Origin: Escherichia coli
Lineage (GTDB): Bacteria > Pseudomonadota > Gammaproteobacteria > Enterobacterales > Enterobacteriaceae
DNA length: 64,000 nt
Assembly (NCBI RefSeq): GCF_017348835.2
Contig: NZ_CP072315.1
Direction: 5' to 3' (one strand)
Under the pieces are notes generated by a model. The model saw only the letters and a program-made list of their open reading frames with translations, did no database searches and was not told the DNA's origin. Below, in pieces: positions 45,844 to 63,979 of the stretch; positions within the stretch are counted from its first letter, which is position 1; each line of letters starts with the position of its first letter. The position numbers and the translations under genes were made by a program.

Positions 45844-47085
45844 GTGAATCTACAATCCGGACAAAACATACCGCTTCAGCAATCTGCGATCAGGCTGAAT
45901 CTTCAGTACCCTGCCAAATCCGGCTTTAAAGGCGAACCCGATACCTGCCTCTTCCTGCTTAATGCTCAGGGAAAGGTAACCGGCGATTCTGACTTTATCT
46001 TTTATAATAATCTGTCTTCTCCTGAAGGGGCAGTAAAGCTCGTTACCGGTTCTCAGCAGTCCAGCATTGAGATAGCACTGGATCGTGTTCCGGCGAACGT
46101 CAGTAAGATTGCGATCACCGTTGTCATTGATGGTGAAGATACTATCAGTGGGCTCAGTTTATTGAGCATTCAGGCTCCTGGTATCGCTGATTTTCAGGCT
46201 GAGACTCAGGGCCGCAGTGAGAAAGCAATCATCCTGGGTGAAGTATATCGGCACAATGGCGCCTGGAAGCTTCGTGCGCTCGGGCAGGGTTTCAACGGTG
46301 GTCTTGAGCCTCTGGCCATTAGCTTTGGCGTTGATGTCGCACAGCCAGCTCCGCAGCCAGCAAAGCCTGCTCGTATCAGTCTGGAAAAGAAACTTGAAAC
46401 CAGATCTCCGCGCCTCGTAAGCCTCGCTAAAAAAGCCTCGGTCAGTCTCACTAAAAATAAACTGGACACCCTTGAGGCAGCGGTTGCATTTGTACTTGAC
46501 GCATCCGGCTCAATGAGTGGCCAGTTCAGTAAGGGCAACGTTCAGTCTGTGCTGGACCGCATCGCCGTTCTTGCCGCCCAGTTCGACGACGACGGTGAAA
46601 TGGATGTCTGGGGATTTGGAGAGAAGCACAAGAAGTATCCAAACGTCACACTGGACAACCTGGACACATATATTCAGTCCATTCGCGGGTCTGGAAAGCG
46701 TTCAGCCTGGGAGAACCTGCCGGGACTTGGTGGGACAAACAATGAGCCCCCTGTGATGGAAGAAATTGTCGACTACTTTAAGGACTCGAAAATCCCGGTA
46801 TATGTTGTATTTATTACCGATGGCGGGATCAGCAAGACCCGGGCGATTAAAGATGCAATCCGGCGTTCTGCCAACTACCCCATCTTCTGGAAGTTTGTCG
46901 GCCTGGGTGGTTCAAGCTACGGTATCCTCAAAAATCTGGATGACTTTACTGACCGCCGGGTTGATAACACCCACTTCTTTGCCATGGATGATTTCGGTTC
47001 GATCAGCGATGAAAAGTTATATGATAATTTACTGGAAGAATTCAGACCGTGGATCGATGAAACAAAAAGGTTAGGCATCCTGTAA
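45844..47085 (+). CDS. terF: TerF: TerD-domain + C-terminal vWA-like domain, GTG start
   Basis: N-terminal TerD-like region, C-terminal VLDASGSM and FITDGG; GTG at 45844 preceded by AGGAGA RBS; own promoter region after the terE terminator. Confidence 0.8.
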
Positions 47086-47113
47086 TACGCACAGTTTTCG
47101 CATGGTTAAAGGA

Positions 47114-47147
47114 GCTCTACAGCAGCTTAATACTGTAGAGCCTTTGT
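47114..47147 (+). terminator. Hairpin downstream of terF
   Basis: GCTCTACAG-(10 nt)-CTGTAGAGC then CTTTGTT; U-tract weak. Confidence 0.4.
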
Positions 47148-47175
47148 TCACTGGAAATCGTACAGGGAGGAGCAT

Positions 47176-47307
47176 ATGGACCGCATCAAGTACCTGAAAT
47201 GGATAGCTGAAGAATCACCAACTGATGATGAAATCGACAACTACGATAGTATCATTAGTCGGGGCGCAGAAAGGGCCGAGAAGGTTCAGTTGTCTTTAAG
47301 ACGTTAA
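47176..47307 (+). CDS. Possible small protein (43 aa)
   Basis: ATG preceded by GGGAGGAG at ideal spacing; below the 60-aa track cut-off; no homology recognised. Confidence 0.3.
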   Translation: MDRIKYLKWIAEESPTDDEIDNYDSIISRGAERAEKVQLSLRR

Positions 47308-47647
47308 TATACGGGAGTTTAAATGTTCGCAGAAATCAAAGATAATTATTCGTTAGGTGGATAAAGAAAGGTTGCCATTACCAGCTTTCGACGAGTCGAA
47401 AATAAAAACCTTATTTATAGTGACAGGGAGTATGAGCTGACGCTTGCCAATGGAACAATAATTAAAAATGTACTTAGAAAAGAAGAGTGGGAACTGTTAG
47501 AAAGCAATTCAATTAAGGTTATATTATAACGAAAATATATTTACAGTTTTGGATAGGTTTCAAACGAGTCCGGACATTTGTACCTGAAGTATCTGACATT
47601 ACAGTTAAGTGACGATTATGCCAGCACGTCTGTTGCTGGCAGCTTAG

Positions 47648-47929
47648 CTATCGGTCTAAAAGCTGATCCATTAATAATTCTTCGTAAAGCCCAGAGGTAT
47701 CGGGCTTTATTACAATATCCGTTATTTCGAAGCGTTCAAGTACAAATTGCAGATATTCCGGAGTAACGTAGTAGGGATCAGGTTCAGCCAGATTAGTATA
47801 GAGTGGGTCTTCTGCTGCATTAATGTCATAATCAATGCACATATGAAACCACTGCAAAGGTGGATCCCAGCCTAACATCACCTGAACAATTCCCTGATTG
47901 CTTTTCACCTCATACCAGTGCTGGCTCAT
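47648..47929 (-). CDS. Hypothetical protein (93 aa)
   Basis: ORF only; no motif recognised. Confidence 0.4.
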   Translation of the reverse strand: MSQHWYEVKSNQGIVQVMLGWDPPLQWFHMCIDYDINAAEDPLYTNLAEPDPYYVTPEYLQFVLERFEITDIVIKPDTSGLYEELLMDQLLDR

Positions 47930-47978
47930 ACTTAGTCCTTAAGAAAATTTGTCATCGGAAAATAACACGAAGCCTGCA

Positions 47979-48170
47979 TCATCGAGGCGCATAACCTTCT
48001 TCCCTTAACGCCTGTTGTAATTTATCAACTGCGCTTTTCATTACCCAGGCTTCTTCGTCACTCACAGCACAACCACGTAGATCGCTCCAGCTCAGACGTT
48101 TAACAAATTGAGCAAGGGCCATAGTTTCGTTCTCATCAAGCCGCAAACTCAGTGTCTCAATACCTTCCAC
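47979..48170 (-). CDS. Hypothetical small protein (63 aa)
   Basis: ORF with RBS (aaggaggttagattgtgg on the minus strand); no motif recognised. Confidence 0.35.
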   Translation of the reverse strand: MEGIETLSLRLDENETMALAQFVKRLSWSDLRGCAVSDEEAWVMKSAVDKLQQALREEGYAPR

Positions 48171-48261
48171 AATCTAACCTCCCTTATAATGAAAAATGGC
48201 GCTTTACTTCTGACCAGATGCCGAAGCCTTGAATGCAGCCGGAACTGTCGTTGTTTCTACT

Positions 48262-48633
48262 TTACAGAAATGGAATTAAAAAGTGGTGATGCTGGGCACG
48301 TTTCTTTTCCAGCCGGGGTTTAAGCCAGAGCTGAAACTCATTCAACTTCTCAGCAGCCAAAACCGCTTCAACGGGGAAAACTTTATATTTACCCTGTTGC
48401 TGAGGTTCACCCAGCCATCGCCTGATGGCTCCGTCAGTCCATAAACGAGTCTCTTTTAGCCTAGTTACAGTGACCCATTTTCTGGACCATTCATCAAATT
48501 GTCGCTGGCGATCCCGATAACGTTGTTCTTCCTGCTGCCGAAGCCACTCGCGATCAACAGCAAATTTTCGGTATCCAACAAAGAGCCCTTGTACTTTGGC
48601 CATGTCATATTCCGGTTGCTTAGAGTTACTCAT
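48262..48633 (-). CDS. Hypothetical protein (123 aa), basic/Arg-rich
   Basis: ORF only; Arg/Gln-rich helical central region. Confidence 0.4.
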   Translation of the reverse strand: MSNSKQPEYDMAKVQGLFVGYRKFAVDREWLRQQEEQRYRDRQRQFDEWSRKWVTVTRLKETRLWTDGAIRRWLGEPQQQGKYKVFPVEAVLAAEKLNEFQLWLKPRLEKKRAQHHHFLIPFL

Positions 48634-48975
48634 TCAACCAAAACCTAAACGTCGATACAAACTCTGTTTCATAACCAGGGTTTTATCCTTACCGCGACAG
48701 TAAGTAACAGGGGCTGCATAAACCGGTCATTTAGTCCGTTATGCAAAAATTATTGAGGATCCGGGCTGTTAAACTGTTCTTCCTCTTTCGCTTCCGGTGA
48801 AAAGGGGAGGTGTCACCCTGCGAGCCCGTGTAGTGAAAGGGATTCGTCGTAATACAGGCCAAAGGCTAACATGACCGCAAAGGACGCCCGGGCGACCGGA
48901 TACCTGCCGGGTTGTGCGATGTAAAATCCGGAAGCAGTGATAACACAAACAGGCCCCTACAGCGTAAGGATTGTG

Positions 48976-49368
48976 ATGGACGATAAAGAGCAGTTTACGA
49001 ATCTTGTGGCAAAGCATGCCTCCGGACTCACCGAAGAGCAGCTGGCCGGGTACGATGCCTGTTCCCTGGATGGTGAATGCGTCACGCCTTCATACGAGGT
49101 TTTCCGGGGGTATCGTACCCGCCACACACTGGATGAATTTCTGGAGATGGCCATATCGCTGAATGCCATCCACCCGGATGAATATTTAACGGATATGCTG
49201 CTGAAGCCTCATGAGGTGATCGGCGCTCTGGCCGATGAAGGCGACCAGCTGAACAACGCCACCCCGGTTTATTTCTTTCCGGATACCGGCGTCTATGCAG
49301 CGGCCGTTAGTGAAACCCGGGTGCTCGATGCCTGGCTTTGCTGGCCATGCTACCCGGCGAACTGGTAA
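48976..49368 (+). CDS. Hypothetical protein (130 aa)
   Basis: ATG at 48976 with AAGGA RBS; track start 48937 is GTG. Confidence 0.45.
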   Translation: MDDKEQFTNLVAKHASGLTEEQLAGYDACSLDGECVTPSYEVFRGYRTRHTLDEFLEMAISLNAIHPDEYLTDMLLKPHEVIGALADEGDQLNNATPVYFFPDTGVYAAAVSETRVLDAWLCWPCYPANW

Positions 49369-49436
49369 CGCGGCCGTTGGAATTGCACCGGCCGGATACG
49401 AATTTAACCGATCCCGTGGCGGGAAGGCTATCAGAG

Positions 49437-49689
49437 TTGCATGTCCTCATCCCTCAAGCCCCCTGCCAGGCCCCAACGTGCTGTCAGGCTTCGCCTGATT
49501 CCCGATCTGCGCCGATACTTCAGCCGATAACTTTTTGTTTTCTTTTTATTTTCTTCCCATTTCCTCAAAAATCGCGGGCGGCGTGGACAGGGCACCATTG
49601 CCGCATGTGGGGTCTTAATAAGGGCAGGGTGGTCAGTTTTGCTCGATGCCATGGGTAGGCCCTCCCCTTCATGGGATGAGGACATGCAA
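49437..49689. repeat. Element bounded by perfect 17-bp terminal inverted repeats (MITE-like or large stem-loop)
   Basis: TTGCATGTCCTCATCCC at 49437-49453 and its exact reverse complement at 49673-49689, ~220 bp apart, with no convincing ORF inside. Confidence 0.5.
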
Positions 49690-49842
49690 GTAAGCTAACT
49701 ATCTGAAATGACGAAGGTTCATTTGGTGAATGTCGCTTCATATTAATGTTGTGTCACTTATGATCGTATGTAGCTGGTTGCAAAGAGGAGCGATGAGACA
49801 ATAAAGTTGTATCGCTAACAAGATTTATGCTGCCACATAGTA

Positions 49843-49941
49843 ACAGCCTAAAAGTTGTACGCCCTATTTAACAGCTTTTAGGCTGTTAATTTGATATTAC
49901 AGCTTTTAGGGTGTATGTTTAGGAAACAGCCTGCAAGGTGT
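49843..49941 (+). promoter_or_regulatory. Four evenly spaced operator-like repeats upstream of hipB
   Basis: ACAGC-N6-GTTGT (49843), ACAGC-ttttag-GCTGT (49871, perfect palindrome), ACAGC-ttttag-GGTGT (49899), ACAGC-ctgcaa-GGTGT (49926); spacing 27-28 bp, ending 28 nt before the hipB ATG. Confidence 0.6.
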
Positions 49942-49968
49942 ATCAGAGGAAACTACTGAGGCCAGCTT

Positions 49969-50265
49969 ATGATCAATAATGATTACCCGTTAAACACGCT
50001 CAACCAGCTGCGTCCCTTGCTCATTGGTTTTCGCAAGGCGAATGGCCTGACGCAAAAAGACCTGTCCGAAAGGTTAGGCGTCACTCAACAGACATACTCA
50101 CGTCTGGAAGCCAACCCTGCCAGTGCGAGCATTGAACGGCTATTCAAGGTGTTTTCCATCCTGGGCGTAAAAATCAGCTTCTCCTCGGCAACCACCTCTT
50201 CAGAGAGGAAGCAGACGGAAGAAATGCTTAAATCAAACTCACCTGCACGACAGGAGGATTGGTAA
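49969..50265 (+). CDS. hipB: HipB antitoxin (XRE-family HTH repressor)
   Basis: 98 aa; LIGFRKANGLTQKDLSERLGVTQQTYSRLEANP matches HipB helix-turn-helix; 4 nt upstream of hipA. Confidence 0.85.
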   Translation: MINNDYPLNTLNQLRPLLIGFRKANGLTQKDLSERLGVTQQTYSRLEANPASASIERLFKVFSILGVKISFSSATTSSERKQTEEMLKSNSPARQEDW

Positions 50266-50269
50266 CGAT

Positions 50270-51595
50270 ATGAGCCGGAAACAGCAACGTCTGGTAATTT
50301 GGATGAACGGCATCAAAGTCGGGTACTGGGAAAAAAGCAAAGGGGTAGACAGCTTAGAATACCTTCCTGAATGGGTTGCTGACGAACAGGGAAGGCCGCT
50401 GTCATTGTCCCTTCCTTTTACTCCCGGGAACCAGGTCTGGCGTGGAAATGTGGTACGTGACTATTTTGATAATTTACTGCCGGACAGCGAAGGCATACGC
50501 AGACGTCTGGCAATGCGTTACAAGGCCGATAGCCTGGAGCCTTTTGATCTGCTGACGGAGCTGGGAAAAGACTGCGTGGGCGCGATACAGCTGCTTCATG
50601 ACGGAGATGAACCCACTGATTTATATTCCGTGAAGTATCACCCGCTTACTGAATCAGAAATTGCGGCAACTTTGCGTAATACCACGGAGACATTGCTACC
50701 GGGCAGGCCAGAAGATAACGACGACTTACGTTTATCTATTGCCGGTGCTCAGGAGAAAACAGCCCTACTGTGGCATGAAGATCGGTGGTGTATGCCGGAG
50801 GGTAATACACCAACGACGCATATATTCAAGCTACCGCTCGGACTTGTGGGGAACATGAAAGCCGACATGAGCTCGTCGGTTGAAAATGAATGGCTCTGCT
50901 CGGTACTTCTCGGCCAGTACGGGCTCCCCGTGGCAAGAACGCAGATTGCTCACTTTGAAGATCAGAAAGCGCTGGTGGTAGAACGTTTTGACCGAAAATG
51001 GTCAGGAGACGGACAATGGATCATTCGTTTACCCCAGGAGGATATGTGTCAGGCCCTGGGCGTTTCGCCATTACGAAAATATCAGGCGGACGGCGGGCCA
51101 GGTATATCGGAAATTATGGAGGTTCTGAGTAATTCAGACCGTGCTGAGCGTGACAAAGCGCAGTTTTTTATGACGCAGATAATTTTCTGGATGATGGCCG
51201 CAACAGATGGCCACGCTAAAAATTTCAGTATTTCTATTGGGCCACAGGGACGTTATCACCTTACACCAAACTATGATGTGTTGTCGGCATGGCCGGTGAT
51301 CGGTCATGGGAACAATCAGATATCCTGGCAGAAGTGCAAACTGGCGATGGCCGTACGTGGCAGTAGCAACTATTACCAGATATATCGAATACAACGACGC
51401 CACTGGATCAGGCATGGTGAGATAACCGGCCTGAGTAAACAGCAGACAGAGGCGATGATAGAGGAAATCATCGCCAGAACCCCGGGTGTCATTGAACGTG
51501 TTAGCGGGCTTCTTCCGGACCAGTTCCCCCAGCAGCTTGCGGAAAGTATTTTTGATGGAATGAGGCAGCAATGCAGGCGCCTGGCTGAGAAATGA
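50270..51595 (+). CDS. hipA: HipA-family Ser/Thr kinase toxin
   Basis: 441 aa; blocks shared with E. coli HipA (PLSLSLP, FDNLLPDS, SIAGAQEKTALL, ATDGHAKNFS, RLPQEDMCQ). Confidence 0.9.
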   Translation: MSRKQQRLVIWMNGIKVGYWEKSKGVDSLEYLPEWVADEQGRPLSLSLPFTPGNQVWRGNVVRDYFDNLLPDSEGIRRRLAMRYKADSLEPFDLLTELGKDCVGAIQLLHDGDEPTDLYSVKYHPLTESEIAATLRNTTETLLPGRPEDNDDLRLSIAGAQEKTALLWHEDRWCMPEGNTPTTHIFKLPLGLVGNMKADMSSSVENEWLCSVLLGQYGLPVARTQIAHFEDQKALVVERFDRKWSGDGQWIIRLPQEDMCQALGVSPLRKYQADGGPGISEIMEVLSNSDRAERDKAQFFMTQIIFWMMAATDGHAKNFSISIGPQGRYHLTPNYDVLSAWPVIGHGNNQISWQKCKLAMAVRGSSNYYQIYRIQRRHWIRHGEITGLSKQQTEAMIEEIIARTPGVIERVSGLLPDQFPQQLAESIFDGMRQQCRRLAEK

Positions 51596-51655
51596 CAGCC
51601 GCAATTTATAGTGTGCATGTTTTCAGAATAGCTGATGTAAGCGTGAGGATTCAGT

Positions 51656-51862
51656 ATGACTGAAGAACAAAAAAGAATAGAGCGGGCTATTGAGTTGGCT
51701 TGTCGTTACGGCGGAACCGATGAAATGCATCATCTGCAATGGGTCGTGGATCAGATGGTAAGAGAACTTGCTGGAGAACGTTATGCACAGATTGTAGCTG
51801 ATGCCACCAGCGGAGAAGATGGGCCTGATACTTACAAATGGAGTGTTGGGATCGCGCCTTAA
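51656..51862 (+). CDS. Hypothetical small protein (68 aa)
   Basis: ORF only. Confidence 0.35.
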   Translation: MTEEQKRIERAIELACRYGGTDEMHHLQWVVDQMVRELAGERYAQIVADATSGEDGPDTYKWSVGIAP

Positions 51863-51963
51863 CAGCTGTCGGTCTGGGGGTGAAAACGTATTCTTCATTC
51901 AGCGAATTCCCAGGCTTCACATTAAGACTAAAGCGGCGGCCGCAGTAACGTAAGAGAAAATAA

Positions 51964-52374
51964 ATGGCTATTTTAGCAATCATTGCAGTTATCGCCCTGG
52001 GTGGGTACGCCTACGGATTTATTAAAACCCGTGAGCTGAGCGCTTTGCGTAAAGAAATGAAACTATACGTGGATCGCATGGAAGCGGCGGAGCTGGACTT
52101 ACACGCAATCAGAAGTGTAGCGGAGCACCGGTTGCACGGTGCAGGTAAACAGTTTGCCGACCTTTACAGCCGTATCGACGGTGCAACTGTGACGCTGACA
52201 CCCGAAGATCAGCTGTTACTGGCAACGATGCCATTTAATATTCAGGATGTAGAAGACATCGTAAACGAGCGCGGTCCAAAGACAATTAGCGGCCGTCCAT
52301 TCTGGGAAGTTGAGCCAGGCCCGCATGATTATGAATATGGCCCGCAATATCCGTATTTCCCAGACCAGCGCTAG
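51964..52374 (+). CDS. Hypothetical protein with N-terminal TM anchor
   Basis: MAILAIIAVIALGGYAYGFI hydrophobic N-terminus; 12 nt upstream of the HNH gene. Confidence 0.45.
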   Translation: MAILAIIAVIALGGYAYGFIKTRELSALRKEMKLYVDRMEAAELDLHAIRSVAEHRLHGAGKQFADLYSRIDGATVTLTPEDQLLLATMPFNIQDVEDIVNERGPKTISGRPFWEVEPGPHDYEYGPQYPYFPDQR

Positions 52375-52386
52375 GAAGAGATCAAG

Positions 52387-53202
52387 ATGAGAGAGCCAAG
52401 ACCACGCCATACCTTGCAGGTCATTCGTGTACCTTCTCTGGAGGTTCAGGACCTGGGGCTGACCAGCTTTGATAGCTGGCTTGACGAGCACGGGTATGAC
52501 AAAACGAATGCCAGAAATAACCGTACCATCTGGGCGAGAGAAGGCGGATGGCATCTGAAACGTTGCAGAAATCTTGAAACTGGCACGGACGATTTCTGGT
52601 TTATCGCTTTCGATGGTAAAGGCGGGAAGATTTACCCGCTGAAAACCCAAAGAGACTACCGGGCTGCATATCGTAAGCTGGAAGCAGAAGGTTATGCGCC
52701 TGCGGTCATCGAGCAAATGACCACAGGCGCAGCATATAACCTGGCCTATCCACGTTCCATCCTAAAACAAGCTGAGACGGCCACCAGCGAGCCAATTCGG
52801 AAACCTGACGTAGATATCCAGGGTGAGCACTGCGAGCGCGTAGTGACGCAACGTAGTGGCGTGGCACAGGGTAAATTCAAAGCTCTGCTCATCGAGAATT
52901 TCGCAGGCCGTTGTGCGGTAACCGGTTGGGTTAATGGAGGTGTCCTGGATGCGGCACACATTGAACATGGAACCCGGTACAATCCGTCTAATGGCATCCT
53001 GATGACTCCAACAATGCATGCGCTGTTTGATGCCGATCTTATGGGCATAGATCCGGCCACCCTGACCGTTCATTTTAAGCCAGGCATTGAGGTGGGCGAG
53101 CTGTTTGAAGGCCGTAAAATCACACCGCTGGTGTACGATCTGGACTTAGAGCGGCTGGCCGTACGCTGGGCAGAATACCAGGGCCTTGCTCAGGACCAAT
53201 GA
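52387..53202 (+). CDS. HNH-nuclease-domain protein
   Basis: C-terminal HNH-like signature GRCAVTGWVNGGVLDAAHIEHGTRYNPSNGILMTPTMHALFD; N-terminal ~150 aa unassigned. Confidence 0.6.
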   Translation: MREPRPRHTLQVIRVPSLEVQDLGLTSFDSWLDEHGYDKTNARNNRTIWAREGGWHLKRCRNLETGTDDFWFIAFDGKGGKIYPLKTQRDYRAAYRKLEAEGYAPAVIEQMTTGAAYNLAYPRSILKQAETATSEPIRKPDVDIQGEHCERVVTQRSGVAQGKFKALLIENFAGRCAVTGWVNGGVLDAAHIEHGTRYNPSNGILMTPTMHALFDADLMGIDPATLTVHFKPGIEVGELFEGRKITPLVYDLDLERLAVRWAEYQGLAQDQ

Positions 53203-53485
53203 AGGGTGACAGCCAGGTTGTGCCTAAACCTGGCAGTAAAACCTGCATGCCACAAACCTTTAAATTCTGACTCAAGAGCCTGGCACAAGATAAAAGCGAA
53301 ATGAAAAGGTTAAAACCGGTGCACCAGACCTCTTAGGTTTAATACCTGAGCCAGTATACTGGCAGTCTCAGGTAAGTGGGTATCATACACTTCAGAAATA
53401 TCCACACCGAGATAACCGCAACAGTTAAAGGGTGATGCTGCCAACTTACTGATTTAGTGTATGATGGTGTTTTTGAGGTGCTCCA

Positions 53486-53761
53486 GTGGCTTCTGTTTCT
53501 ATCAGCTGTCCCTCCTGTTCAGCTACTGACGGGGTGGTGCGTAACGGCAAAAGCACCGCCGGACATCAGCGCTATCTCTGCTCTCACTGCCGTAAAACAT
53601 GGCAACTGCAGTTCACTTACACCGCTTCTCAACCCGGTACGCACCAGAAAATCATTGATATGGCCATGAATGGCGTTGGATGCCGGGCAACCGCCCGCAT
53701 TATGGGCGTTGGCCTCAACACGATTTTCCGCCATTTAAAAAACTCAGGCCGCAGTCGGTAA
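53486..53761 (+). CDS. insA: IS1 InsA
   Basis: [42 protein letters not shown]..., canonical InsA. Confidence 0.9.
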
Positions 53762-54183
53762 CCTCGCGCATACAGCCGGGCAGTGACGTCATCGTCTGCG
53801 CGGAAATGGACGAACAGTGGGGATACGTCGGGGCTAAATCGCGCCAGCGCTGGCTGTTTTACGCGTATGACAGGCTCCGGAAGACGGTTGTTGCGCACGT
53901 ATTCGGTGAACGCACTATGGCGACGCTGGGGCGTCTTATGAGCCTGCTGTCACCCTTTGACGTGGTGATATGGATGACGGATGGCTGGCCGCTGTATGAA
54001 TCCCGCCTGAAGGGAAAGCTGCACGTAATCAGCAAGCGATATACGCAGCGAATTGAGCGGCATAACCTGAATCTGAGGCAGCACCTGGCACGGCTGGGAC
54101 GGAAGTCGCTGTCGTTCTCAAAATCGGTGGAGCTGCATGACAAAGTCATCGGGCATTATCTGAACATAAAACACTATCAATAA
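53680..54183 (+). CDS. insB: IS1 InsB reading frame (expressed as InsAB' transposase by -1 frameshift)
   Basis: Canonical InsB sequence (...[36 protein letters not shown]...). Confidence 0.9.
53737..53743 (+). other. IS1 programmed -1 ribosomal frameshift motif A6C
   Basis: AAAAAAC inside the insA/insB overlap. Confidence 0.7.
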
Positions 54184-54226
54184 GTTGGAGTCATTACCGG
54201 AGAATTGTATCATTAACAGTCTAGTT

Positions 54227-54892
54227 CTAACGACTACCACTTTTAAGTATGTATTGAGCCAGTTTTATATTCAGGCACACCATATTGCACTCTAGCTCTT
54301 TCATCATTCTTGAAGAACTCTTAATTAAGTATTCTTCAAGTGGGCCAGCATATGCCCCTGATGTCACGATCGTTAGTTGCGTAAGAGGATGAGTCAAACT
54401 CTCAATGCCCTTCAGGATGTCATTCTGGACAGCAGCAATATAAACAGGCGAAGCCGCAATCAAATATTCATCATTCGGGCTGGACTGCATTAACTGGCTT
54501 ATAGTTGCGCAACGGTTATGCTTACCTAGTGATTTTGTGATGGCTTTCCACCAGAGATCATGCCTGAATGGTACTTGATGAAATGTCGCCTCGTAAGAGG
54601 GCACCCGATCTCGACTATTTAAAAACCCCATCCCGGCAGAGATTATCCACAACTCCAGATTTCTGGTTGAGTTTAAAATTTCCTTTGCCGTAGACCAGTG
54701 ATTACCTGAATACAAGGACAATGCCGGTACCGCCTGATTACTTCTGGCGTCGTCTACAATGTTACTCCAGGCATATGCTGCGTCGTCCGGGGTTTGTTTT
54801 GGATCTATGTCCAATGTCGGCCAGACGTGGCCCTGATGATTCTTGCCCTTTGTACAGGAAGTGATTAAGTGTACTGAGCGTTCAGAGAACAT
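54227..54892 (-). CDS. Hypothetical protein (221 aa)
   Basis: ORF only; no motif recognised. Confidence 0.45.
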   Translation of the reverse strand: MFSERSVHLITSCTKGKNHQGHVWPTLDIDPKQTPDDAAYAWSNIVDDARSNQAVPALSLYSGNHWSTAKEILNSTRNLELWIISAGMGFLNSRDRVPSYEATFHQVPFRHDLWWKAITKSLGKHNRCATISQLMQSSPNDEYLIAASPVYIAAVQNDILKGIESLTHPLTQLTIVTSGAYAGPLEEYLIKSSSRMMKELECNMVCLNIKLAQYILKSGSR

Positions 54893-63399: not shown

Positions 63400-63654
63400 A
63401 TGAATTTGGCCTATTTTTTATTTTTGTCTATAACTGTTATGCTTACGAGCTTTATTATTAAATCACTTGTCGTATTGGTAAAGTTCAAATTACTTCGTGA
63501 TGAACGTCTCGAATATACCAGCAATAAAAATATTGATGAGATGTACGATTTAATGAATGCGAAGGAAGAAATCCTCATAAGGCATCATAAGCAGATGTTG
63601 GCATTGCATCTTTCACTATTAATATTCGTTCTATTTATTGCTTACATTTACTAA
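63400..63654 (+). CDS. Small membrane protein (84 aa)
   Basis: Hydrophobic N- and C-terminal helices. Confidence 0.4.
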   Translation: MNLAYFLFLSITVMLTSFIIKSLVVLVKFKLLRDERLEYTSNKNIDEMYDLMNAKEEILIRHHKQMLALHLSLLIFVLFIAYIY

Positions 63655-63691
63655 AAATAATTTTATTCAACATTTCAACAAAGGGTTTTCA

Positions 63692-63979
63692 ATGGAAAGC
63701 TTCGAAACTGAACAAATGATTCAATATGCTTTCTACATAAATATCGTAATAACGACTGGTTTGGCATGGTTTTGCTTGCGGTCAGGATTGCATTACAATT
63801 TTTTCAGAAAAGCAGAGAGTGCCAGAACAAAAGGGCTGAGTAGTACCTCTACTGAACACGGTCCAGCAATAGTGAGACTAAAGAAGCTACAAGCATTAGT
63901 AGATTTTATTAGTAACTGTGCTTTTCTAATCCTTTCAATTGGCACAGCTTATATTTTGTATGTTTGGAGCCACAGTTAA
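63692..63979 (+). CDS. Small membrane protein (95 aa)
   Basis: ATG 63692 with AAGGG RBS; the track's upstream extension overlaps the previous gene. Confidence 0.4.
   Translation: MESFETEQMIQYAFYINIVITTGLAWFCLRSGLHYNFFRKAESARTKGLSSTSTEHGPAIVRLKKLQALVDFISNCAFLILSIGTAYILYVWSHS

Follow-up and report, generated by a model that had tools for sequence, protein, structure and literature searches.

The hipBA operon of IncHI2 resistance plasmids is preceded by four evenly phased palindromes predicted to be HipB operators

The closest solved relatives of the proteins described here are HipB (2WIU_B) and HipA of Escherichia coli K-12, encoded by the chromosomal hipBA genes (b1508/b1507). In K-12 a Cro-type HipB that ends in Trp is encoded ahead of a two-domain HipA kinase, and four 18-bp palindromic operators, TATCC-N8-GGATA, overlap the promoter. 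These operators stand in two pairs with an uneven spacing of 28/39/28 bp (PMC4150777), and their 5-N8-5 geometry is seen in the K-12 HipB–DNA co-crystal (PMC4150777, PMC3376134). The C-terminal Trp of K-12 HipB closes the Lon-degron tail (PMC3376134). The kinase residues comprise a Gly-rich loop with an autophosphorylated Ser, an ATP-binding Lys, a catalytic Asp, and a Mg-binding Asn and Asp (PMC11717353).

A four-operator array with half-sites different from those of K-12 is not new. HipBA of Shewanella oneidensis MR-1 (PDB 4PU3–4PU5) likewise has four palindromic operators at equal intervals, and their half-sites are not those of K-12; there the operator is GTGTA-N6-TACAC, the sites are 34 bp apart, and the fourth lies inside hipB (PMC4150777). 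The Shewanella HipA is, however, a distant relative of the HipA described here (E = 3e-21, compared with 1e-100 for K-12 HipA). Another plasmid-borne module, HipBA of Klebsiella michiganensis pPSKoxy4_2 (IncA/C), has a HipA approximately 44% identical to that of K-12; it is toxic, is neutralized by HipB expressed from the native promoter, and stabilizes its plasmid, but this HipA belongs to a different cluster, nearest to Xenorhabdus HipA, and its operators are undescribed (PMC11487325). The hipBA module of IncHI2 plasmids is itself already known, being annotated and cited as a stabilization module; in the IncHI2 literature, hipA or hipAB is simply listed among the "stabilization" genes. In the literature searched we found no description of the operators of IncHI2 or Burkholderia-type HipB, and a published gel-shift study of Acidovorax HipB did not define a binding site.

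The locus analyzed here is a hipB–hipA toxin–antitoxin operon of the IncHI2 resistance-plasmid backbone. It was present, at a coverage of at least 80%, in 1162 plasmid records, mostly of conjugative IncHI2 plasmids; the records were typed IncHI2A/MOBH/MPF_F, and the ter operon adjoins hipBA. IncHI2 plasmids are important vehicles for mcr-1, mcr-9, blaCTX-M, and oqxAB, and hipBA is regularly entered among their stability genes, a role assigned so far by annotation. Gene calls, a domain search, and alignment to K-12 showed that the whole module is complete, with hipB followed by hipA in the same orientation. Its features within the window (the whole 64-kb stretch of DNA analyzed) are as follows.

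49842 to 49859, no strand: candidate operator O1, AACAGCCTAAAAGTTGTA, found by pattern search; 21.8 bits, the top match in 64 kb.
49870 to 49887, no strand: candidate operator O2, AACAGCTTTTAGGCTGTT, with perfectly palindromic half-sites; 20.5 bits.
49891 to 49919, plus strand: predicted sigma-70 promoter, with TTGATA as −35 (49891–49896), TATGTT as −10 (49914–49919), and a spacer of 17 nt.
49898 to 49915, no strand: candidate operator O3, TACAGCTTTTAGGGTGTA, filling the predicted promoter spacer; 20.5 bits.
49925 to 49942, no strand: candidate operator O4, AACAGCCTGCAAGGTGTA, beginning 6 nt past the −10 hexamer; 14.2 bits, the weakest of the four.
49958 to 49961, plus strand: Shine-Dalgarno-like GAGG, 7 nt before the hipB ATG, read from the sequence.
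49969 to 50265, plus strand: hipB, encoding an HTH antitoxin/repressor of 98 aa whose tail after the HTH ends in Trp98 (the RefSeq start is 3 nt downstream, at 49972).
50270 to 51595, plus strand: hipA, encoding a Ser/Thr kinase toxin of 441 aa and beginning 4 nt past the hipB stop codon.

The products and their arrangement have the traits of a HipBA module. A gene for a Cro/C1-type HTH protein (HTH_3 domain, 4.5e-15 in the domain search) lies immediately upstream of hipA in the same orientation, and beyond the HTH domain HipB has a tail that closes with a conserved Trp; the C terminus is ...ARQEDW, and the terminal Trp was found in 79 of 80 family HipBs. Both HipA domains are present, with scores above the gathering score (Couple_hipA, PF13657, 3.7e-21; HipA_C, PF07804, 3.6e-51), and HipA scores 93.5 bits with TIGR03071. 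Over 425 residues the protein and K-12 HipA share 41% identity. In that alignment S156, K187, D313, N318, and D336 correspond to K-12 S150, K181, D309, N314, and D332, bearing out the earlier description, made from the sequence-only reading, of a full-length HipA with conserved kinase blocks. These catalytic residues showed little or no variation among 17 relatives of 61–83% identity, and the kinase motifs are intact.

At the sequence level, the palindromic repeats also overlap the best predicted promoter, which has 9 of 12 consensus matches. O3 lies inside its −35/−10 spacer, the final two O3 bases open the −10 hexamer, and O4 is expected to cover the transcription start, predicted near 49926. 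Among the relatives described below, a −10 beginning at the operator-terminal TA, the same arrangement as in the window, was the commonest best match (25 of 67), and the place of the best match with respect to the operators varied. Because several positions in such AT-rich repeats fit the consensus equally well, we claim no conserved promoter–operator register. A terminator scan flagged the O2 hairpin, but all it detected there was a palindromic operator followed by T's; O2 sits upstream of the promoter and was rejected as a terminator. The array sits at one end of 470 bp of non-coding DNA that varies in sequence from one of the two IncHI2 lineages to the other. An Rfam scan of 47000–54500 at a permissive threshold gave no RNA family, and the non-coding stretch upstream of hipB is therefore not a known RNA.

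We consider it very probable that the locus is a functional, autoregulated hipBA type II toxin–antitoxin operon, with HipB operators, on the IncHI2 conjugative backbone. HipB dimers would occupy the four 18-bp operators, (T/A)ACAG-N8-NTGT(A/T), between 49842 and 49942. With O2 abutting the −35, O3 within the spacer, and O4 over the transcription start of the predicted promoter, occupancy would exclude RNA polymerase. HipB-bound HipA would act as co-repressor, as in K-12, and since the 27- to 28-bp interval is that of K-12 O1–O2 and O3–O4, HipA molecules on neighboring operators could touch along the array. Loss of the plasmid, or degradation of HipB through its presumably disordered, Trp-ended tail, would free the stable kinase and arrest growth, and this toxicity would favor retention of the plasmid.

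hipBA belongs to the conserved backbone of a conjugative plasmid kept at low copy number, a trait of plasmid addiction. Its main selected role could instead be phage defense by abortive infection, host persistence, or that of a selfish passenger with a weakened toxin, and for such a role one might cite the weak matches of HipA to the candidate defense family PDC-M03A (E = 4e-5), the HNH endonuclease gene nearby, and the possible loss of hipA in two records. We regard this as unlikely, although by no means negligible: the module is intact at 98–100% identity in more than 1100 plasmids of two IncHI2 lineages, the catalytic residues are intact, and the PADLOC hits of HipA to the defense family are marginal and do not support a known defense system. 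The HNH endonuclease gene lies 0.8 kb downstream of hipBA. In two IncHI2 records no HipA protein is listed under the hipBA match, and hipA may therefore be a pseudogene there.

The operator array was examined by a pattern search of the whole 64-kb window. ACAGC-N6-GNTGT occurred at 49843, 49871, 49899, and 49926 and nowhere else in the window, with start-to-start spacings of 28, 28, and 27 bp; the last palindrome ends at 49941, leaving 28 nt before the hipB ATG at 49969. Shuffled sequence was expected to give 0.34 matches in 64 kb, and none of 100 shuffles reached 5; the site at 49871, being a perfect palindrome, matches on both strands. O1 is an inverted copy of O2, whose reverse complement matches O1 at 15 of 16 core bases. 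The four ACAGC-type repeats previously noted at 27- to 28-bp spacing, 28 nt before hipB, are thus confirmed. The right half-site, given earlier as G(C/G)TGT, is GTTGT in the first site, which that pattern misses; the conserved register is the 18-bp TACAG-N8-CTGTA and not ACAGC-N6-GCTGT.

The better parse came from the consensus and the 27-bp period of relatives, a set of 79 hipB loci from Gamma- and Betaproteobacteria of other genera and classes. Arrays of 3–4 boxes precede hipB in 72 of the 79, with the consensus TACAGCCTATAGGCTGTA; 258 sites were found in 18.4 kb upstream of hipB, compared with 11 in 102.6 kb of hipA coding sequence. The ACA and TGT triplets were fixed by the pattern in the first pass over the relatives, whereas in the second they were scored by a weight matrix and not required. 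Spacing was exactly 27 bp in 167 of 191 intervals, so that even spacing belongs to the HipB-box family at large. A Cronobacter IncFIB plasmid, approximately 70% identical in the coding region, has four sites spaced 28/27/28 bp whose inner bases differ. A family weight matrix built without the window sequence was then run over the 64 kb, giving the bit scores listed above, and the four sites ranked 1st, 2nd, 3rd, and 5th. Conservation of the box before hipB in relatives and this ranking support the earlier suggestion that the repeats are HipB operators; the four palindromes are almost certainly the binding sites by which HipB represses its own promoter.

Burkholderia, Paraburkholderia, and other Betaproteobacteria have HipA proteins 55–62% identical to that of the plasmid and share its box, 27-bp period, and TQQ helix. 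Their hipBA is, in contrast, chromosomal, their arrays usually number 3 or 4 sites, set exactly 27 bp apart, and the low-complexity linker of their HipB is far longer, up to approximately 200 aa. This subfamily appears to include the HipBA of B. pseudomallei K96243, which has been tested; the link is through PMC11487325.

The plasmid and K-12 modules share their gene order, the two HipA domains and catalytic residues, and four 18-bp operators of 5-N8-5 geometry with neighboring sites 28 bp apart. They differ in half-site (TACAG vs. TATCC), in recognition helix (TQQTYSR vs. KQATISN), in spacing (an even 28/28/27 vs. 28/39/28), and in gene junction (a 4-nt gap vs. coding sequences overlapping by one base); the plasmid HipB is 10 aa longer, and it is encoded on a conjugative plasmid, not the chromosome. 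The likeness to K-12 previously drawn is correct as to the K-12 motif and the number of sites, but does not extend to even spacing. TATCC-N8-GGATA, with up to two mismatches, was not found at 49700–49970. Over the whole window there were 34 matches of this type, compared with 22.4 ± 5.3 in shuffles, of which 2 of 100 reached 34; with none in the promoter region and only this modest excess, K-12-type operators were rejected. A search of the K-12 hipBA promoter for the plasmid-type box found nothing meaningful.

The box was present if and only if the HipB recognition helix, which in the plasmid protein opens T39-Q40-Q41, begins with (T/S/A)QQ. Where QQ is absent, in K-12 (KQA) and three relatives, other palindromes are found. 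A Gln-Gln helix start and ACA outer triplets co-occur, and independent support for the association comes from these four HipBs, without QQ and without the box. The HTH of HipB aligns with that of the phage 434 repressor at 35% identity, placing Q40-Q41 on Q28-Q29 and T39 on T27. The operator of phage 434 repressor and Cro is ACAA-N6-TTGT, and Gln28 and Gln29 contact ACA. Both operators have invariant ACA...TGT outer triplets, although in the HipB box (ACA-N10-TGT) they are 2 bp farther apart than in that of 434 (ACA-N8-TGT), and HipB differs from 434 repressor in dimer interface and partner protein. The likeness lies in how the DNA is read, not in family membership. By analogy with 434 repressor, HipB probably recognizes the triplets through its Gln-Gln pair.

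Because the box tracks the QQ helix and the K-12-type operator is absent from the promoter, the proposal that this HipB has a specificity unlike that of K-12 HipB appears sound, and we infer from sequence that the two would be orthogonal. It is rather improbable that the sites are HipB operators and yet the plasmid and K-12-type chromosomal modules cross-bind or cross-neutralize. Both operators are 18 bp long, 5-N8-5, with outer TA...TA, the first helix Gln is common to both HipBs, and K-12 HipB neutralizes the paralogous kinase YjjJ according to a review (PMC7180214). Against this, the half-sites TATCC and TACAG differ at 3 of 5 positions, and neither promoter holds the other's box. The HipBs are 32% identical, and the plasmid HipB falls short as a K-12 HipB orthologue, scoring 41.5 bits against the cut-off of 79 of the NCBIfam K-12 HipB equivalog model (NF007271) and lacking TATCC-N8-GGATA operators.

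We suggest tentatively, as something that may well prove otherwise, that the TQQ-helix HipBs are a class of their own, with TACAG-N8-CTGTA arrays of 3–6 sites at 27 bp, insulated from K-12-type hipBA, and with one continuous HipA–HipA filament. If so, an enterobacterial host could harbor both the plasmid and the chromosomal module free of regulatory or neutralization cross-talk. Uniform phasing would let HipA–HipA contacts span the array, as opposed to the two separate pairs of K-12, and the stoichiometry of the filament and the threshold for derepression could differ from the K-12 model. The defined operators, consensus box, and predicted promoter are ready reagents (probes, point mutants, and reporters) with which to examine whether hipBA confers stability on the plasmid and whether the host's own module is insulated from it. 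The 27-bp phasing and the link between Gln-Gln and ACA offer natural data on the way in which an HTH antitoxin shifts its specificity while keeping the geometry of its sites. The findings leave the current picture of HipBA biology unchanged.

A fixed 27-bp period makes the junction between repeats, CTGTA-N9-TACAG, as palindromic as TACAG-N8-CTGTA itself, and the TGTA...TACA orientation of that junction is found in the Shewanella operator GTGTA-N6-TACAC (PMC4150777). That the junction is the binding unit is nevertheless very unlikely. Arrays open with a left half and close with a right half, orphan half-sites occurring in 4 of 74 and 1 of 74 arrays, so that arrays are built of whole units. The inner N8 shows the palindromic preference CCTATAGG, whereas the N9 between boxes is merely T-rich and then A-rich, and 5-N8-5 fits the geometry of the K-12 HipB–DNA co-crystal (PMC4150777, PMC3376134).

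Large plasmids carry phased repeat arrays, and this one borders a non-coding stretch that differs between lineages, but it is scarcely credible that the repeats serve the plasmid as iterons, a partition centromere, or the sites of another regulator, and lie beside hipB by chance, given that hipB is preceded by this box at this period on chromosomal contigs from many genera (Burkholderia, Paraburkholderia, Duganella, Yersinia, Rahnella, Citrobacter, and others), that a different HipB recognition helix goes with a different box, and that only one further strong copy occurs in the window. Alignment of the two IncHI2 lineages over 49820–49968 showed 8 differences, none of them in an ACAG or TGT core, a comparison that is weak alone since the chance of such a result is approximately 0.08. 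The single other strong box in the window, at 63943, is a possible second HipB target and is noted as a lead only.

Four near-palindromes, the proposed HipB operators O1 to O4, were found within 49842-49942. O1 is a copy of O2 in inverted orientation, and successive sites start 28, 28, and 27 bp apart. The locus corresponds to the hipBA genes of the IncHI2 backbone, which already carry annotation: RefSeq names the products 'helix-turn-helix transcriptional regulator' and 'type II toxin-antitoxin system HipA family toxin'.

Features of the hipBA locus
49842 (start), O1, AACAGCCTAAAAGTTGTA
49870 (start), O2, AACAGCTTTTAGGCTGTT
49898 (start), O3, TACAGCTTTTAGGGTGTA
49925 (start), O4, AACAGCCTGCAAGGTGTA
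49969-50265, + strand, hipB, 98 aa
50270-51595, + strand, hipA, 441 aa

The sequence-only reading had described four ACAGC-N6-G(C/G)TGT repeats at 27-28 bp spacing, the last 28 nt before hipB. All of this was seen at O1-O4, apart from a minor slip: the right half as written misses O1, where it is GTTGT. The relaxed pattern ACAGC-N6-GNTGT matched only at the O1-O4 positions in the 64 kb (0.34 matches expected from shuffles). A weight matrix built without the window ranked O1-O4 1st, 2nd, 3rd, and 5th among the 64,000 positions; matches of at least 18 bits arose 0.043 times per simulated 64-kb sequence. Ranked 4th was a lone additional box-like site, CACAGCTTATATTTTGTA, at 63943-63960 (18.4 bits, with the same chance expectation of 0.043). 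Located at the 3′ end of an ORF without annotation (63638-63979), this site precedes by ~106 nt a hypothetical gene (198 nt) in pEGY1-MCR-1; HipB may have a second target here, or the match may be due to chance. A weaker site, TACAGCGTAAGGATTGTG (48958-48975, 14.1 bits), just within the start of hypothetical ORF 48937-49368, is probably noise, because chance should give about 0.44 matches at that level per 64 kb.

The hipB ATG at 49969, with GAGG 7 nt upstream, looks to be a better start than that of RefSeq (PGAP), an ATC codon at 49972 giving 97 aa; 4 nt separate the hipB stop from the hipA start. HipB has a Cro/C1-type HTH domain (PF01381, 4.5e-15), and HipA has the HipA N-terminal and C-terminal kinase domains. 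The closest solved structures were those of E. coli K-12 HipB (E = 1.4e-6) and K-12 HipA (E = 1e-100), the Shewanella HipA structure being much further from the window HipA (3e-21). Identity to the K-12 proteins was 41% over 425 residues for HipA and 32% across the HTH for HipB. Because the best NCBIfam match of HipB, the K-12 HipB equivalog model, reached 41.5 bits, below its cut-off of 79, we consider it a relative of K-12 HipB and not an orthologue. HipA is full length with conserved kinase blocks, as had been proposed: K-12 S150, K181, D309, N314, and D332 align with S156, K187, D313, N318, and D336, of which the last four were invariant, and S156 nearly so, among 17 aligned HipA relatives (61-83% identity). 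The hipA7 positions G22 and D291 are also kept, as G25 and D295.

The last residue of HipB is Trp. In K-12 HipB, the terminal Trp ends a 16-residue disordered tail that is a Lon degradation signal (PMC3376134). A C-terminal Trp was present in 79 of the 80 HipBs from related loci. HipB length in the relatives L011-L069 was between 83 and about 200 aa, with the differences residing in a low-complexity Ala/Pro/Lys/Ser-rich linker between the HTH domain and a terminal ...(K/R)(E/K)xW.

These 80 loci, with HipA identities of 50-79%, were taken from a one-genome-per-species collection and came from Citrobacter, Rahnella, Cedecea, Yersinia, many Burkholderiaceae and Oxalobacteraceae, Rhodocyclales, Alteromonadales, and Xanthomonadales. 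The motif ACA-N10-TGT occurred 258 times in 18.4 kb of upstream DNA (230 bp upstream of hipB, 79 regions) and 11 times in 102.6 kb of hipA coding sequence from the same loci. By weight matrix, 36 loci had three sites and 36 had four, and 167/191 neighbor spacings equaled 27 bp; spacings of 28 bp were few and mostly those of Enterobacterales relatives and the window. The family consensus is TACAGCCTATAGGCTGTA, and the 9 bp between sites are T-rich, then A-rich. An IncFIB plasmid of Cronobacter sakazakii has a hipBA with ~70% identity in coding DNA and four sites 5′ of hipB (in order, TACAGCGTTCAGGCTGTA, AACACCCTTTATGCTGTA, TACAGCCTGAAGGGTGTA, and TACAGCTTATCGTATGTA) spaced 28/27/28 bp, in which the outer bases are conserved and the inner bases vary freely. 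The longest array seen, in Yersinia thracica (locus L010, 1009-1162), has six operators, all at 27-bp spacing; most relatives have three or four.

The most conserved family positions were T-ACA-G ... C-TGT-A, or TACAG-N8-CTGTA, and the inner C and G of ACAGC/GCTGT were not constant. We therefore take the site to span 18 bp in a 5-N8-5 layout, as in K-12 TATCC-N8-GGATA. A unit of CTGTA-N9-TACAG across the junction of neighboring sites is unlikely, since arrays open with a left half and close on a right one, and only 4/74 and 1/74 arrays had orphan halves. The hipBA module of the sequence-only reading stands, and its interpretation of the repeats as operators is supported, with the half-site register corrected to TACAG-N8-CTGTA.

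The HipB recognition helix starts with (T/S/A)-Q-Q in every box-bearing locus (GVTQQTYSRLE in the window HipB), and the box-less loci are those without the second or first Gln. A zero count for one locus, L018, was an artifact of a wrongly extended start codon. Because the box co-varies with the helix, we link it to HipB and not to any plasmid function.

HipB recognition-helix starts and upstream sequences
Pigmentiphaga (L074): SQNRL, palindrome TATCG-N8-CGATA
Xanthomonas (L083): TRQAV, palindrome GCAAC...GTTGC
Ramlibacter (L085): SQKRI, TTTACCC-type repeat
E. coli K-12: KQATI, palindrome TATCC-N8-GGATA

The L074 locus is from Pigmentiphaga humi. Its half-site differs from that of K-12 at 1/5 positions, and its HipA falls in the window's subfamily (54% identity) despite the near-K-12 box.

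HipB was 35% identical over 46 residues to the N-terminal domain of phage 434 repressor, with T39-Q40-Q41 on T27-Q28-Q29; the 434 query matched PDB 1R69, 1PER, and 2OR1 (all 63 residues, 123 bits). The 434 operators are ACAA-N6-TTGT, and in the co-crystals of Anderson, Ptashne and Harrison in 1987 and Aggarwal et al. in 1988, Gln28 and Gln29 reportedly read the invariant ACA. Because a Gln-Gln pair goes with an invariant ACA in both systems, a 434-like reading of ACA by HipB is plausible by analogy.

K-12 hipBA has four TATCC-N8-GGATA sites with starts 28, 39, and 28 bp apart (gaps of 10, 21, and 10 bp), and Shewanella oneidensis has four GTGTA-N6-TACAC sites with 34-bp gaps (PMC4150777). The proposed likeness to K-12, four operators with other half-sites, was borne out. 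Varied half-sites and even spacing were already on record from these two systems; the four TACAG-N8-CTGTA-type sites of the window add a third operator type, which a large subfamily shares and which recurs at a constant period of 27 bp. No K-12-type box was found in the window hipBA promoter and no TACAG-type box in the K-12 hipBA promoter; because the half-sites also differ at 3/5 positions, the two HipBs likely have separate specificities. K-12 HipA molecules at neighboring operators reportedly dimerize, which blocks the active sites, and hipA7 G22S weakens this (summarized in PMC7180214). Because the K-12 within-pair spacing nearly equals the 27-bp period, HipA contacts could by analogy extend along the whole window array.

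The predicted promoter is TTGATA-17 nt-TATGTT at 49891-49919, the top sigma-70 match of the region. Its −35 lies between O2 and O3, O3 occupies the spacer with its terminal TA opening the −10, and O4 begins 6 nt past the −10, across the expected start site; HipB binding would therefore shut out RNA polymerase. Among relatives, this arrangement was the commonest best match (25/67), usually at the second-to-last operator, and alternative placements scored equally in the AT-rich repeats.

In the literature searched, no description was found of this operator box, the family-wide phasing, or the Gln-Gln/ACA link, which extend a well-understood scheme and do not change it. HipB binding and repression, HipA toxicity, the degron, and plasmid stabilization at this locus are putative, as read from sequence. 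IncHI2 plasmid papers list hipA or hipAB among backbone stabilization genes by homology only (PMC4855149, PMC6617520, PMC11271444). The first experimental proof of plasmid stabilization by a plasmid-borne HipBA came in 2024 from an IncA/C plasmid, whose HipA is in a different cluster from the window's; other plasmid HipAs were placed nearest B. pseudomallei HipBA (PMC11487325). The 55-62% identity of the window HipA to Burkholderia/Paraburkholderia relatives fits that placement.

Large plasmids of E. coli, Salmonella, and E. fergusonii carry the 2-kb hipBA segment, which lies just beyond the ter tellurite-resistance operon, at 100% identity. The segment was present in 285/5426 complete E. coli genomes, nearly always plasmid-borne, and in 1162 PLSDB plasmids (coverage at least 80%); those checked typed as IncHI2A, MOBH, MPF_F, and conjugative. 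Identity was at least 99% within the window's lineage and 97.9% to a second lineage, found in plasmids of Enterobacter, Klebsiella, and Citrobacter. Homology between the lineages starts exactly at 49820, 22 nt before O1. By alignment count, none of the eight inter-lineage differences in 49820-49968 falls in an ACAG or TGT core, a result with a chance of ~0.08 by our own arithmetic that slightly favors the operators. The ~450 bp upstream (49369-49820) have no annotated gene, and an Rfam search found no family there.

Two IncHI2-lineage records, H48 (NZ_CP008899.1) and H49 (NZ_CP133352.1), had the HTH regulator alone under the match; because PLSDB omits pseudogenes and neither lists a HipA protein, a few plasmids may have an inactive hipA. 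Downstream of hipA, at 51656-53202, are three genes in the same orientation with no predicted terminator between: 68-aa and 136-aa hypotheticals, both kept in both lineages, and an HNH_2 endonuclease of 271 aa. Their transcription may continue from hipBA or start at a weak CTGAGA-16-TATAGT match at 51585-51612. Farther downstream are ORFs that, from their translation, we take to be IS1-type insA-like (53486-53761) and insB-like (53680-54183). In pMS8345A, this place after the HNH gene is taken by a hypothetical gene; we therefore read this backbone copy as carrying an inserted IS, or as rearranged, downstream of the hipBA region.
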